From an uncultured Chloroflexia bacterium (GTDB lineage Bacteria; Chloroflexota; Limnocylindria; Limnocylindrales; CSP1-4), in NCBI GenBank assembly GCA_963738475.1, contig CAVTWU010000029.1, positions 65,924-129,923 of the forward strand: a DNA stretch of 64,000 nucleotides. Direction: 5' to 3'. Within the stretch, counting starts at the first letter, position 1. Each line of letters begins with the position of its first letter. The notes beneath the pieces were generated by a model. It was not told where the DNA came from. It did not search any database and was given only the letters and a program-made list of their open reading frames with translations. The position numbers and the translations under genes are program-made. Of this stretch, positions 2,911 through 64,000 are shown one piece after another.

Positions 2911-3067
2911 GCTCCACAACCCGTCGAGGTCTGCGGACGGAGCCCGGAACCCAGATGGCGCCTCATGACCTCGCCCATCCGTGGCACACGGGTGGGCGAG
3001 TGTGTGTCTCCCATCGAAGCCGGGGCCCCAGTCGGACGCGACGACCCGCTTCGAGAGGAACGCGACG

Positions 3068-4262
3068 ATGGCCCTTTCCCGAGTCCTCCTGCGCCGAGCC
3101 GGTGCGCTCACCCTGGCGACGACGCTTGCCCTCTCGACGGGAGCGGCGGCCGTCCTCGCGGCCGAACCGCCGACCACGTCGGACCCGGGGCCGGCGGCCG
3201 CCGGTTGGATCGCCGGCCAGGTCGAGGCCGGCGTCGGGCCCGGGCAGCCTCGCCGACGCGATCTTCGCCTATGCCTCCACCGGCACGGGCGCGAACGCCG
3301 CCGCCGACGCCCTGGCCCGGCTCGAGAACGTCGTCGACAGCTACATCCTCGACGGATCCGCCGCGCTGGTCCCGGGCTACCTCGCCAAGACCCTGCTCGC
3401 GGTCCAGGTCGCCGGTGGCGACCCGACCTCGTTCGGCGGCCACGACCTCGAAGCCGAACTGCGCAGCCTCATCGTCACGACCCCCGGGCCGGACCTCGGT
3501 CGCTTCGGCGCCGGGCTCCCGTCGGACCAGGCGCTCGGCGTCATCGCCCTGTCGCGAACGAGCGGTGGCGCCCCCGCCGAGACGGTCGACTACCTCGTCA
3601 GCCTCCAGTGCTCGAATGGCGACTTCCAGTGGGACGCCTCCTGCCCCGGCGCGGGCGCCGAGGACCCCGATACGACCGGGCTCGCGCTGCAGGCCCTGCT
3701 GGCCGGTGGCGCCTCCTCGGCCGCGGCCACCTCCACCCAGCTGCTCCTCGATATCCAGGGCTCGGACGGCTCGTTCAGCTCGTTCGGGACGCCGAACACC
3801 AACAGCTCGGGTGTCGCCGGGCAGGCCTTGCGGGCCGCCGGTGAGGCCGGCGCCGCCGACGATGCCGCCGCGTTCATCCTGACCCTGCAGTACGGCTGCG
3901 ATGCCCCGGCCGCCGATCGTGGCGCCTATCCGTGGGCGACGTCCTACGCCGGCCTCCTCATCTACTCGACCCCGCAGGCCGTCCTGGCCTTCGGAGGGCC
4001 GTCCCTCGAGGACCTGAGCATCGCCGGCGCGTCGGCGGCGGCTCCCGTGCTCGATTGCGCGGCGCCGGAGCCGTCCGACGACGGCGGTGCCGCCCCGACC
4101 GATGACGGCGGCTCGGCGCCGACCGTGACCCTCCCGCCGACCGATCTCGATCCGGCGGTTCCGGCGTCGGGCGGTGCGCCGACCTCGGCCCTGGCGGTGC
4201 TGGTCCTGCTGGCCGGCGCGGCCGGTTCCGTGGCCGTCGTCCGCCGCCGGGTCCGTCGCTGA
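3068..4262 (+). CDS. Secreted prenyltransferase/squalene-oxidase-repeat (alpha/alpha barrel) protein with C-terminal anchor; frameshift near 3245
   Basis: Signal peptide MALSRVLLRRAGALTLA; repeats LQCSNGDF, IQGSDGSF, DPDTTGLALQAL, NTNSSGVAGQAL; C-terminal LPPTD, then TM helix and RRRVRR. Confidence 0.75.
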
Positions 4263-58185: not shown

Positions 58186-58265
58186 GGGTGCGCATGGTAC
58201 CGCGCAGGCCGCGGGGGTGGGCGACCCATCCGATCTGCCCGGTCGCGCGTATCCCCTGTGAAACC

Positions 58266-58354: not shown

Positions 58355-58846
58355 ATGGCCACCGTTCCCGATCCCGTCTCCGCCTTGCTGGACAAGGCGC
58401 TCGTGGCCGAGCTGACCGTCGTCGATGGACACGGCACGCCCGTCACCTACCCGCTCATCCCGCTCTGGGACGGCGAGAAGGTCTATCTCACGTCCTCGAC
58501 CCTGTTCAGCCGGAAGCTCGAGCACATCAAGGGCAACCCGAAGGTCTCGGTCTCGATCACGGACCCGGTCGCGACCGACGGTTCGCTCGATCGCGCGACG
58601 ATCCAGGGCGACGCCCGGGTCATCGAGGAGGACCCGCACGGCGGCTGGGAGCGCCTCCTGCCGATCTGGGAGGCGAAGGAGCCGTCCATCGTCTACTTCC
58701 TCAAGGCCCGCGTCGCCCTGCCGCTGTTCTTCGAACGAGCGCTCATCGAAGTGACGCCGCGGCGGGTCCTGTACTGGTCCGACGGGGATGCGCACCACGC
58801 CCCGGTCGTCACCACCGCCGGCGCCGTCGCCGGGGAGGCCGCGTGA
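58355..58846 (+). CDS. Pyridoxamine 5'-phosphate oxidase-like split beta-barrel protein (flavin/F420-binding type)
   Basis: LTVVDGHG.PVTYP, SRKLEHIKGNPKVSVSI, IQGDARV; AGGAG RBS. Confidence 0.82.
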   Translation: MATVPDPVSALLDKALVAELTVVDGHGTPVTYPLIPLWDGEKVYLTSSTLFSRKLEHIKGNPKVSVSITDPVATDGSLDRATIQGDARVIEEDPHGGWERLLPIWEAKEPSIVYFLKARVALPLFFERALIEVTPRRVLYWSDGDAHHAPVVTTAGAVAGEAA

Positions 58847-60303
58847 TGCCCGCCACCGAAACGCCACGACCGCCACCGCCGCGCGGTCCGCGAGCGACTC
58901 CACCGACGGCCGCACGCCGTCCCTCACGCCTCGCGTCGGCCTCGACAAGCTGGCCACGTATCCGTTCCACGTCGCGACCTGGGTGGACGATGCCGGCTAT
59001 CCGGTCAGCGTCGCGGTCCAGGCCACGATCCATCCGACCGACCTGACCGCCACGTTCGACGCACCCGGCCGGGATGGACGTCCCGACCGTGCCGACCGAC
59101 CGGGTCATCTCGCTGACCGGATCGCACATCCGGCCGCAACCGGGCTACGGCTACGACGAGCGCCGCCACGTGACCGTGTGGGGCCCGGCCAGCCGCGATC
59201 GGCGATCTCCTCACGATGTCCGGCCGCCGAGCCTGGGGCTGGGACGAGGCCGAGGTCCCGTTCTTCGAGTACTCGGAGCGGTCCGTCGGCCAGTCGCGCC
59301 GCTACTTCGACGCCCTGTCGGCGGAGCGCGGCACGCCGGTCAAGCCGAAGCTGTCGTTCGGGTTCCTGACCCTGCGGACGACCCGCCTGCCGTTCCTCAC
59401 CGCGACGATCATCCCGGTCGTCCTGGGCATCCTCATCGCCGCCAGCCACGGCTCGTTCGACCTCGTCGCGGCCGTGCTGACCATCGTCGGGGCGTCCTTC
59501 GTCCAGCTCGGGCTCAACGTCGCCAACGACGTCTTCGATACCGTCCAGGGCGCCGACGATGCGAACGTCACGCCGACACAGTTCAGTGGCGGTTCGCGGG
59601 TCATCCAGTACGGGCTCGTCAGCCTGCGCCAGATGGCGACGCTGGCGACCGTGTTCTACGTCCTGGCCGGGATCATCGGGCTCGTCCTGCTGGCGACCCA
59701 TGGGTCGACCGCGCTGCTGGTCATCGGCGTCGTCGGGTTCATCGTGAGCCTCGGCTATACGGCGCCGCCGCTCAAGTTCGTCTATCGCGGACTCGGCGAG
59801 ATCGCCGTCGCGATCGGCTTCGGGCCACTCATGCTGCTGGGTGCCTACGTCGTCCAGACCGGCGGGACGCTCGCATGGGAGCCGTTCGTGGCGTCGATCC
59901 CGATCGCCCTGCTCGTCGCCCTGATCCTGTACGTCAACGAGATCCCGGATCGTCGCGGCGACGCGCGAGTCGGCAAGCGGACCCTCCCGGTGCGCTTCTC
60001 GGAGACGACCGTCATCACGGGCTACAACGTGGCGGCTGCGGGGGCGTTCATCGCCCTGGTCGCGGGTGTCGTGGCCGGGATCCTGCCGATCCCGGCACTG
60101 GCGATGCTCCTGACCATCCCGATGGCGCATCCGCGTCTCGCGCGGCCTCCGCCCGAACTACGACAACCCGTATGGCCTCATGGCGATCATGGGCGTCAAC
60201 GTCCAGCTGCACATGCGGGCCGGCCTGCTGTTGCTGGCCGCGTACCTGCTCGTGCTGATCGTCGGCGCGGTGGCCCCCGGACGCGAGCCTGTTCCTGGGC
60301 TGA
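58846..60303 (+). CDS. UbiA/MenA-family prenyltransferase with an N-terminal soluble domain; frameshifted
   Basis: TRLPFLTAT, NVANDVFD, DDAN...SGGSR, YRGLGEI, NEIPD..GD..VGKRTL; the frame from 59216 runs from the soluble region into the UbiA domain without a stop. Confidence 0.85.
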
Positions 60304-60305
60304 CG

Positions 60306-61091
60306 ATGGCGCTGACCGCGTGCAGCGCGCTCACGGCGGCCGAGGCGTTCGCACGTCCCCGGCCGCGGATCCACGGGCTGGATGCGACGACGACGCTGCG
60401 GGACTTCGCGATCGTCACGTTCGATGTCGATCCGGACCGACTGGCGGCGCGTGTTGCCGGCCGGTCTGTCGCCGGAGATCCGGACGCTCGATGACGGGCG
60501 CGAGCGCGGCTTCGTGTCCGCGGTCTCGTTCCGCGATGTCGACTTCCGGTTCGCCTTCGCGGGCTGGCTGCGGCGGTCGTTCTTCCAGACGAACTACCGC
60601 GCGTACGTGCGCGACCCGGACGGGCGACAGGCCGTGTTCTTCTTCGGGACGACGCTCGACTCCCGGCTGGTCGCGGTCCCGCGGCACGTGTGGGGCATGC
60701 CCTGGCACCCGGGCCGGACGTCGATCGAGGCGACCTGGACGGACGGGGCGTGCACGGCGTACCGGCATCGCTGCGACGGGCGACGTGGGGCGGCGCGGAC
60801 GTCGAGCTGGTCGGGTCGTCGGAACGGGCCGGCCGCCTCGACGGGTTCACCGACGCGGACGACACGGCCCACATCCTCACGCACCCGCTGGACGGCTGGT
60901 TCCGTCGACCGGACGGCCGACTGGGCCGCTATGCCGTCTGGCACGAACGCCTGCCGATGACCGTTGGCCGCGCGATCCGCGCTCGCTACGACGTGTTCGA
61001 GAGCCTTGGGCTGGTCGCCGCGGGCGCGGTCCCCCACTCCGTCCTGCTCGCCCCGTCGGTCGAGTTCGACGTGCTGCTGCCGCCCACGTAA
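60306..61091 (+). CDS. DUF2071 (YqjF-like) protein, frameshifted
   Basis: FAIVTFDVDP, FVSAVSF, QTNYRAYV, VFFFGT, WGMPWH, LTHPLDGW. Confidence 0.7.
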
Positions 61092-62003
61092 GCGGCAGGA
61101 AAGCGCCGCCTCGCAGACTCGCCGCGTGGATCCCATCCGGATCGGAGCCGACGTCCGGCTCCTCCGCAAGCGCAAACGCTGGACGCAGGCGCGACTGGCC
61201 AGCGAAGCGGGTGTCTCACGCTGGGTCATCTCCCAGATCGAGTGCGGGCGCGCTGATCGATTCGCCCTGGCGGTCGTCAAGCGCGTCGTCGATGCGACCG
61301 GCGGCTACCTGTCGGTTCGCATCCAGTTCCAAGGCGAGGGCCTGGACCGCCTCCGCGATCGCGCGCACGCCCGCATCGTCGATGACGTGGTCTCGATACT
61401 GGTCGCGTTGGGCTGGACCGTCGAGACCGAGGTGTCGTTCAACCACTTCGGCGAGCGGGGATCGATCGACATCCTCGCGTTCCACGCCCGCGCCGGAGCG
61501 CTGCTCGTCGTCGAGGTCAAGACGGTCGTGCCTGACGTCGGCGGGATGCTCATGACGCTGGACCGCAAGGTGCGCATCGGTCCGGGCCTGGCGCAGGCCC
61601 GAGGGTGGGAGGTCGAGTCCGTGTCGCGGCTCCTCGTGTTTCCCGAGTCCAGTACGCCACGGCGACGAGTGGCTGACCATGCCATGACATTCGCCAGCGC
61701 GTTCCCGGCACGGAACGAGGCGATCAAACGATGGCTGCCGCGACCGACCGAGCCGATCCGCGGGCTCCCTTTTCCTGTCAGATGCTGCCTCCGGCAGCAC
61801 GAGAACGCGGCGAACGGGCTGAACGGGCAGCGAATGTGGGCACGGAGGCCCCTTTTCCGGTCAGCTGCCGGTCCACGCCATCAGATGACCGGAACCGGCG
61901 GGCACGTGACGGCCGGGACAGCATCTGACGGGAACCCGGCCTCGACCGGGTTGCGTCTGGCCGATCGGATCCGGCGTCTCGGCTCAGCGCCGCCCACGTA
62001 AGC
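61079..62003. repeat. Exact 15-bp direct repeat GCCGCCCACGTAAGC at 61079-61093 and 61989-62003
   Basis: Read directly from the sequence; copies are 910 bp apart and the first contains the stop codon of the DUF2071 gene. Confidence 0.85.
61126..61822 (+). CDS. XRE-type HTH fused to a PD-(D/E)XK nuclease-like domain; probable +1 error near 61767
   Basis: VRLLRKRKRWTQARLASEAGVSRWVISQIECG (HTH); ETE...GSIDILAF...LVVEVKT (E-D-ExK). Removing one C gives IRGLLFLSDA...TG* ending at 61822; uncorrected, the ORF runs to 62001. Confidence 0.8.
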
Positions 62004-62022
62004 CGCTCGCCGGGAATCGATG

Positions 62023-62047
62023 CGGCCCGCCGGGGACCGGCGGGCCG
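62023..62047. terminator. GC-rich hairpin between convergent genes (candidate terminator after dnaK)
   Basis: CGGCCCGCCGG-GGA-CCGGCGGGCCG perfect 11-bp stem; no long U tract. Confidence 0.55.
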
Positions 62048-62074
62048 TTCGTGACTGCGTGGGCGTCGCGGAGG

Positions 62075-64000
<1,926 letters not shown>

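Follow-up and report, generated by a model that had tools for sequence, protein, structure and literature searches.

Is the end of a DUF2071 gene duplicated around an HTH-nuclease gene? A candidate integrative module next to dnaK in an uncultured Limnocylindrales bacterium

Why should the last codons of a gene be found again almost a kilobase downstream, on the far side of another gene? This question is raised by a locus of an uncultured Chloroflexia bacterium from a soil lineage of the order Limnocylindrales, within a stretch of 64,000 nucleotides (contig CAVTWU010000029.1 of assembly GCA_963738475.1, positions 65,924 to 129,923; hereafter, the window). Here, a single gene for a predicted fusion of an XRE helix-turn-helix (HTH) domain with a nuclease-fold domain lies between the 3' end of a DUF2071 gene and the convergent dnaK gene, bracketed by an exact 15-bp direct repeat that a sequence-only reading had taken for a possible mark of a minimal mobile element. 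In this work, the repeats, genes and loci of the window are compared with the loci (L-numbers) and genomes (G-numbers) of relatives; the source assembly, denoted G000, consists of 3.7 Mb in 30 contigs, with an estimated completeness of 60%. The account that we favor, and consider probable rather than secure, is that the segment 61097-61963 is an old insertion module, composed of promoter-like boxes, the HTH-nuclease gene and a palindromic element (PAL), that duplicated the end of the DUF2071 gene.

The 15-bp repeat and the end of the DUF2071 gene

The 15-mer GCCGCCCACGTAAGC occurs exactly two times in the window, at 61079-61093 and 61989-62003, and a genome search yields no further copies elsewhere in the 3.7-Mb assembly. 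The match widens to 17 of 18 bases when 61079-61096 is compared with 61989-62006. As the sequence-only reading stated, the first copy contains the final codons of the DUF2071 gene (..LLPPT) and its TAA stop. This gene (60306-61091, forward strand) starts 2 nt past the UbiA stop and is split into two frames in the assembly, with one internal stop reported; Pfam PF09844 is found on both pieces of the open reading frame (ORF), 60382-60957 and 60690-61088, and intact orthologues of 254 amino acids are encoded in L180 and L181.

Judged from the window alone, such a repeat is ambiguous and within the reach of chance. The window contains five exact direct-repeat pairs of at least 15 bp at a spacing of 100-1500 bp, compared with 1.0-2.2 in Markov-simulated windows, and the genome mean is ∼20 such pairs per 64 kb; for a flank repeat of at least 15 nt at one pre-chosen gene, P is ∼0.007. 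Identical 15-mers 910 bp apart could, then, be an accident of a genome with 71% G+C, and the HTH gene an ordinary resident regulator. This explanation was initially favored, given the window and genome statistics together with the sequence of L007, a 90% identical relative that reads CAAGCCGGGGTGAGC at the second site. It also gains from a set of 44 distinct dnaK-adjacent loci, 37 of which have no flanking repeat, contrary to the expectation of the sequence-only reading that other copies would be flanked by repeats of their own. The explanation was dropped given the evidence from L080 and L177, and it is the relatives that settle the repeat as real.

In L177/L178, where the HTH protein is 92% identical to that of the window, the upstream copy is GTCGAATTCGACGTGCTGCTTCCTCCCACGTAAGTCGC, and the counterpart of the window's second 15-mer site reads ATCAAGTTCGACGTCCTGCTGCCGCCTACGTAAGTCGC. 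The two copies are identical in 31 of 37 positions (alignment score in L177 of 25 against a shuffle maximum of 15.5; P<0.0005), the downstream one reads IKFDVLLPPT*, and the homology in L177 reaches 25 nt into the DUF2071 coding sequence, with the reading frame and the stop codon kept. More decayed relics occupy the orthologous place in L181/L182 (..CCGCCCCATGAGCGGC), L180 (..GGGTAAGCGGC) and L007 (..GGGGTGAGCC), and every relic directly precedes a conserved GGGAATCGATGCGGCCCGCCGG hairpin ahead of the dnaK stop. The 37-nt copy and these relics indicate that the 15-mer pair of the window is the best-preserved, surviving core of a ∼37-nt duplication of the DUF2071 3' end.

The two copies in the window are denoted here U and R. 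The upstream copy U (61060-61096, forward strand) encodes ..SVEFDVLLPPT* and includes 5 nt past the stop, with the 15-mer at 61079-61093. The downstream relic R (61964-62006, forward strand; 15-mer at 61989-62003) is orthologous to the 37-nt relic of L177/L178; its left part is decayed and, aligned to the L177 relic, carries a 5-nt insertion. At a distance of 17 nt, R is followed by a GC-rich hairpin, GGCCCGCCGG-gga-CCGGCGGGCC (62024-62046), read from the sequence between R and the dnaK stop, which is likely to be a shared bidirectional terminator and is conserved in L007, L177, L180 and L181. The 3' part of dnaK itself (62075-64000, reverse strand, from the ORF list) is convergent with the HTH gene and shows 88-96% amino acid identity across the genus.

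In L080, with an HTH protein only ∼60% identical, the same gene end is repeated independently. A 17-nt sequence, CTGCTGCCACCGCGCCG, which corresponds to the codons LLPPRR of the DUF2071 end, precedes the HTH gene and recurs 143 nt past the HTH stop, with a third near-copy 55 nt further; GGGC(G/A)TGAA and a hairpin come after each of the two downstream copies. Thus, U and R agree within a lineage and differ between lineages, including an indel (PPT* compared with PPRRG*/PPRRA* in L080), which implies either more than one event or homogenization of the copies. Among the 44 distinct dnaK-adjacent loci, taken outside the window's own group, a DUF2071-end pattern downstream of the HTH gene is present only in L080, and no relic of this end was found in loci without DUF2071. 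Barring chimeric contigs in L177 and L080, these two loci already contradict an accidental origin, and the relic sits exactly where DUF2071 ends in the empty sites discussed below, so that chance is scarcely credible as an explanation.

Could the two copies instead be kept alike because both are bound by a protein? Ahead of the HTH gene, a set of promoter-like boxes (61086-61119, forward strand) consists of CGTAAGC (61086-61092), GGAAAGC (61098-61104) and a -10-like CAGACT (61114-61119) located 6 nt before the GTG start; the first box overlaps both the DUF2071 stop codon and the first 15-mer. Many loci of the family, with or without DUF2071 (including the upstream regions of L077-L154), contain GRTRAGC-N4-GRTRAGC followed by cANNNT ∼10 nt before the start, which suggests a family-specific promoter of a leaderless or short-leader mRNA. 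The overlap of the 15-mer with a conserved motif would be expected if U and R were operators for the HTH protein or another factor rather than insertion scars, as would the GGTGAGC retained at the downstream site of L007 and the three copies of the L080 repeat. However, such a box is found downstream of the gene in just 3 of 39 dnaK-adjacent loci, the homology in L177 extends far into coding sequence with frame and stop preserved, and the relics decay freely in L180, L181 and L007. Functional twin sites are, accordingly, a very improbable explanation; as a general feature, a twin operator downstream of the palindrome was rejected outright on the count of 3 in 39.

Empty, filled and truncated sites

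If a module entered this locus, relatives without it should show a single DUF2071 end before dnaK, and the alleles of this kind that the sequence-only reading called for are present. In G069, an intact DUF2071 gene ending in ..EFDVLLPPTRV* is separated from the dnaK stop by 125 nt that contain no HTH gene; positions 719-821 of G069 match 60985-61087 of the window and positions 893-1011 match 62014-62137. The G069 spacer shows no significant similarity to the module, of which no trace is seen. In L185/L186, ..LLPPRPA* is followed by 75 nt with a hairpin and then by the dnaK stop; hairpins between the DUF2071 and dnaK stops are thus a feature of the empty sites G069 and L185 as well. Because DUF2071 is directly convergent on dnaK in G069 and L185/L186, the ∼0.87 kb between the two copies (61097-61963) can be regarded as an insertion unit that duplicated the end of its target gene, with R lying directly beside the conserved terminator, at the position of the DUF2071 end in the empty sites. 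Hence, the repeat, in which the sequence-only reading saw a duplicated gene end bracketing an insertion, appears to be exactly that.

The target gene is also present at filled sites, in L187 and in one contig of run ERR12035934, and at truncated ones. In L184 and L188, the HTH gene is cut to its first 16-18 codons and followed by a methyltransferase gene on the opposite strand, with the exact GCCGCCCACGTAAGC retained at the DUF2071 end of L184. Filled, truncated and empty states are, therefore, all present among the genomes that carry the target gene. The region on the downstream side of dnaK shows the same variety in 37 genomes of the genus: the HTH gene is full-length in nine, broken in five (G001, G005, G015, G060 and G073), reduced to 42 N-terminal codons in two (G070 and G006) and absent in ∼18; UbiA adjoins dnaK in some of the genomes that lack the HTH gene. 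A match is present in 20 of 41 relatives, and across the genus the gene is patchily distributed.

The L007 locus runs from the ABC transporter through the methyltransferase, PNPOx and UbiA genes to a 46-amino-acid remnant and the HTH gene, followed on the other strand by dnaK-grpE. The window exceeds L007 by 631 bp (60394-61024) that make up the body of DUF2071, and both have the HTH gene at this position. The methyltransferase gene of L007, of the UbiE type (∼824 bp; 2928-3752) and situated between the ABC transporter and PNPOx, is missing from the window (58204-58220); a gene of the same type is found in L184/L188 between DUF2071 and dnaK, in place of most of the HTH gene, so that this gene seems to move around the locus. 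The neighboring UbiA-family gene of the window (58846-60303) encodes ∼484 amino acids in relatives, including a ∼150-residue N-terminal extension, and overlaps the stop of the PNPOx-like gene; PNPOx-like, UbiA and DUF2071 genes form a very compact string.

The main rival of an insertion is local rearrangement without any mobile element, whereby the arrangement UbiA-DUF2071-HTH-dnaK would be ancestral, U and R would have arisen by tandem duplication and deletion or by slippage, and all other states would be deletions, some of them via U-R recombination. Every configuration can indeed be derived from the full one by deletion, and apparent deletions are at hand: L007 would show the loss of 631 bp of DUF2071 in progress, L184 and L188 the truncation of the HTH gene, and in G045 a DUF2071 fragment adjoins dnaK; the order-wide adjacency of the HTH gene and dnaK is also well explained in this manner. 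Nevertheless, two precise events are needed to leave just a 37-nt second copy, the identity of U and R within the window clade and within L080, coupled with the difference between these (including an indel), is left unexplained, and the empty sites show no trace of the module. On the whole, we consider local rearrangement rather unlikely and retain an insertion as the preferred account.

The HTH-nuclease and its palindrome

What would have been inserted? The only gene of the unit (61126-61822, forward strand) starts with GTG at 61126 and has a true length of ∼231 codons. In the window, the ORF runs on to 62001 (291 amino acids) owing to one surplus C in the run 61767-61769. The proteins of the relatives consist of 228-234 amino acids, with C-termini ..RGLLFLSDAASGSTRTRRTG* that are obtained from the window by deletion of one C, and L177 has CC where the window has this run. 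It follows that the true stop is the TGA at 61820-61822 and that the ORF reaches the second repeat only via a frameshift; the view of the sequence-only reading that the ORF ends in that repeat has to be abandoned. At least 1715 homologues were detected, nearly all of them 220-250 amino acids long and covering the first 74% of the 291-residue window ORF. The UbiA, DUF2071 and HTH genes are each frameshifted relative to intact orthologues (window 59216-61091; 61767-61769), for which sequencing error is the likeliest explanation, given that the pattern fits long-read homopolymer errors better than real pseudogenes.

Residues 6-59 of the protein score above the Pfam gathering thresholds for HTH_31 (31.2 bits; cut-off 27) and HTH_3 (25.9 bits; cut-off 23), and the N-terminal ∼60 residues match HipB and C.AhdI by both fold and sequence. 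Beyond the HTH, no Pfam or NCBIfam model covers the nuclease-fold domain, NCBIfam matching the HTH alone; PADLOC likewise leaves the effector domain unmatched, with a match to the HTH alone (best E-value of 1.7e-5), and a PDB sequence search retrieves HTH proteins only. An AlphaFold2 model built from 43 homologues (pLDDT 86.5) displays an alpha-beta-beta-beta-alpha-beta core after the HTH (helix 79-94, strands 98-107, 110-120 and 125-131, helix 138-158, strand 165-173), in which E102, D115, E130 and K132, an E..D..ExK motif, are invariant in the 43 homologues. Foldseek matches to this model include the R2 RLE domain, Card1, XisH and NucS (E-values from 7e-5 to 1e-2). At the level of the predicted fold, then, an XRE HTH is followed by a PD-(D/E)XK-fold domain in a single protein, in agreement with the sequence-only reading, and a catalytic activity can only be predicted. 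No partner toxin or restriction-modification gene is found near the HTH-nuclease gene.

The second component of the unit is a 165-nt palindromic element (61772-61934; inverted repeat I1 plus direct repeat D5) that begins within the gene. It contains four boxes of the form TTCCnGTCAG(A/C)TG, namely A (61772-61787), B (61855-61870) and, in inverted orientation, C (61879-61894) and D (61919-61934), and each of its strands is predicted to form a long hairpin (z-scores, -3.2 and -3.3). Box A is located inside the ORF, where it encodes ..LFLSDAA; the GLLFLS segment is a confident beta-strand of the model, and the tail beyond it is disordered. This arrangement is common in the family: in 60 of 79 loci, the last ∼35 nt of the ORF have an imperfect inverted copy 100-160 nt downstream, and under stricter scoring, the mean inverted match of the ORF end is 10.6, compared with 7.6 for control segments of the same genes. 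A second PAL copy is found upstream of the gene in L124, L106, L111 and L094. Rfam covariance models find no match in 60500-62600 at E-values up to 1.

PAL also occurs without the gene. In G000, gene-less copies are located at C1:33651-33906, C9:12398-12575, C20:103383-103560, C15:1382-1561 and C27:1881-2086, with partial ones at C14:266455-266660 and C24:299274-299457. The copy number is low: PAL is present at eight loci in G000 (about seven of them solo) and at about nine in G077. The solo copies are intergenic, 165-270 nt long, and contain a right-hand 40-nt unit (CACGTGxCGGCCGGGACAGCATCTGACCGGAAC) one to three times. The arm sequence is species-specific: the solo copies of G077 resemble those of G000, and the solo PALs of G047 carry G047's own arm, CAGATGACACTCAGGCGGTC. 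Comparison of G000 with G077 shows that some solo PALs are common to both and some are not, with indels that exceed the element and unclean boundaries. These features mark PAL as a conserved, genome-specific palindrome tied to the HTH-nuclease family.

Two side observations may be added. The PAL copies of C9, a 12.6-kb contig, and of C20:103300-103560 are nearly identical, flanks included, so that C9 may represent the C20 region a second time, as a redundant or strain-variant contig. Furthermore, short G+C-rich tandem repeats abound in the intergenic DNA around the genes in L094 (∼3860-4060), in the upstream regions of L115, L090, L118 and L121, and in L168 (1800-1920); for example, GGAATCCGGGCTCGGCGCCGC is repeated ∼8 times in L094, and GCGTCAGGTCAGGTCGGCTCGCCGCT units occur in L168.

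Taken at face value, the protein could be a domesticated regulator or repair nuclease, its 3' palindrome a terminator or mRNA stabilizer and the U/R scar incidental. The order-wide synteny with dnaK, the strong purifying selection on the catalytic motif in the 43 homologues, the old age of the paralogues and the placement of the palindrome where a terminator is expected are all compatible with such a role. A domesticated gene is, however, difficult to reconcile with the patchy distribution within the genus (a match in about half of the relatives and no HTH gene at ∼18 of 37 dnaK loci), the frequent truncation and the solo palindromes with genome-specific arms at unrelated loci, and arms of 35 nt, 100-130 nt apart, are far beyond the needs of a terminator. 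We regard domestication as improbable, and an old insertion module as the better description of the unit.

Weighing the insertion, and its likeness to known systems

Several observations weigh against the insertion account and have to be set beside the evidence for it. First, DUF2071 is rare in the genus (3 of 61 genomes), so that a species tree does not fix whether the change was a gain or a loss. Second, in the survey of 103 HTH-nuclease loci from many Limnocylindrales genomes, dnaK is convergent at 58, across the order, typically 200-500 nt downstream, and the dnaK-adjacent HTH loci mostly have UbiA directly upstream and no DUF2071 (overall, UbiA is upstream of the HTH gene in 38 of the 103). 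The association of the HTH gene with dnaK thus long predates the U/R duplication and is difficult to fit into a simple story of insertion at this site. Third, the paralogues in the same genome are 50%, 36% and 35% identical, with no near-identical copies in different contexts. Fourth, in the unit 61097-61963, domain searches detect no integrase, transposase or recombinase, the HTH-nuclease gene being its sole gene, as the sequence-only reading had it, and no inverted repeat joins the ends of 61079-62003. That reading, which described the unit as a lone ORF with no terminal inverted repeats, was correct for the ends and did not mention the only long inverted repeat, the palindrome inside. Finally, target duplications at the solo PALs are at the null level, with longest shared strings of 7-8 nt, and the mismatches between the arms (G.U 86, A.C 115, other 281) give no support to an RNA stem on the coding strand.

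A tree of the HTH proteins shows dnaK adjacency in clusters spread over several clades, and the DUF2071-bearing loci all belong to one well-supported clade. One member of this tree, L154 (DATLVO010000043.1), is labelled Verrucomicrobiia; it has the PNPOx-UbiA-HTH-dnaK arrangement and nests inside the Chloroflexota clade, so that this contig is probably mis-binned.

The duplication itself appears to be younger. In L177, U and R differ by 16%, similar to the intergenic divergence among clade members, and this places the duplication at about the origin of the species group, much later than the order-wide HTH-dnaK association. The adjacency to dnaK at 58 of 103 loci, the paralogues of at most 50% identity, the lack of a recombinase and the frequent truncation and loss all disfavor current mobility. 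What survives of the mobile-element reading is the duplication and the empty sites, and what speaks against it is the widespread synteny with dnaK, a pattern that the sequence-only reading had itself listed among its grounds for refutation. The unit is best seen as an apparently old, mostly inherited insert that gives no sign of current movement.

Under the preferred account, the starting point would be a genome with DUF2071 convergent on dnaK and one terminator serving both, as still seen in G069 and L185/L186. The module would have entered the last codons of DUF2071 and duplicated ∼37 nt of its 3' end, including the stop, such that U kept DUF2071 intact and the original end, now R, was shifted to the side of the terminator. 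This geometry would be that of a single-crossover (Campbell or att-type) integration of a circular copy carrying the end of the target, with host recombination or a recombinase acting in trans as the presumed agent. Subsequently, the module would have been inherited vertically in the species group, while R decayed at varying rates and the HTH gene underwent repeated truncation or deletion. Most likely, the protein uses its HTH to bind the repeated boxes of the palindrome that belongs to it and its nuclease domain to act on DNA, and the solo palindromes with the same arms could be non-autonomous relatives, in the manner of REPIN/RAYT or PATE. So understood, the unit is an integrative module of an undescribed kind; a literature search retrieved no description of this HTH-nuclease fusion or of the element. 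We consider doubtful the further proposition that gene and palindrome make up an undescribed class of self-contained minimal mobile or recombinogenic elements, in which the HTH would read the boxes, the nuclease would cut the extruded hairpin or the empty target, the element would move as a circle with the target end, and the gene-less palindromes would be non-autonomous.

The module shares some features with each of several known systems. As in att-type or Campbell integrative elements, the direct repeats include the last codons and stop of the target, the target remains intact, the displaced original end lies beside the old terminator, and relatives have empty sites; unlike these elements, the module is only ∼0.87 kb long, encodes no tyrosine or serine recombinase, has shown no attP or circular form in the sequences compared, and has repeats that have decayed in most relatives, which implies an old insertion. 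From transposons and insertion sequences (IS), it differs in having neither terminal inverted repeats at the unit ends nor a transposase domain. Parallels in organization are offered by REPIN-RAYT and the PATEs of IS200/IS605, which likewise combine one gene with a palindromic repeat that has gene-less, genome-specific copies; as in REPIN-RAYT, the repeat is present on both sides of the gene in some loci, and the gene is largely vertically inherited. However, the protein has an XRE-HTH and a PD-(D/E)XK fold instead of an HUH/Y1 transposase, the copies occupy only about eight loci, and the left arm is inside the ORF and encodes the protein tail.

Free-standing homing endonuclease genes (T4 seg/mob; PD-(D/E)XK homing enzymes such as I-Ssp6803I) are similar in that one nuclease gene, which also encodes a DNA-binding domain and has a promoter of its own (predicted in the present case), stands by itself, located between conserved genes and showing presence-absence polymorphism and frequent decay, but homing leaves no target duplication, and the N-terminal domain here is an XRE HTH. 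TnpB/IscB with omega-RNA, too, have a structured element that starts within the 3' end of the nuclease ORF and extends past it, but the module has no RuvC or HNH domain, no Rfam match and no mismatch signal of an RNA helix. Among XRE regulators, HipB- and C-protein-like ones resemble the N-terminal 60 residues, which match HTH_31/HTH_3, HipB and C.AhdI, and lack the fused 150-residue nuclease-fold domain.

A module that is mobile, or was so in the past, would rank among the smallest gene-bearing integrative units known. On the same condition, it would be the first case of a PD-(D/E)XK nuclease partnered by its own family of genomic palindromes and a second, independent relationship of the REPIN-RAYT type, and this soil phylum without cultured members would offer a system amenable to tests. 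Read conservatively, the comparison documents a protein family of more than 1700 members whose catalytic domain has no Pfam model, as well as a gene whose last codons are dictated by a nucleic-acid palindrome, and it illustrates that a short exact repeat can be the sole visible trace of an older, longer duplication.

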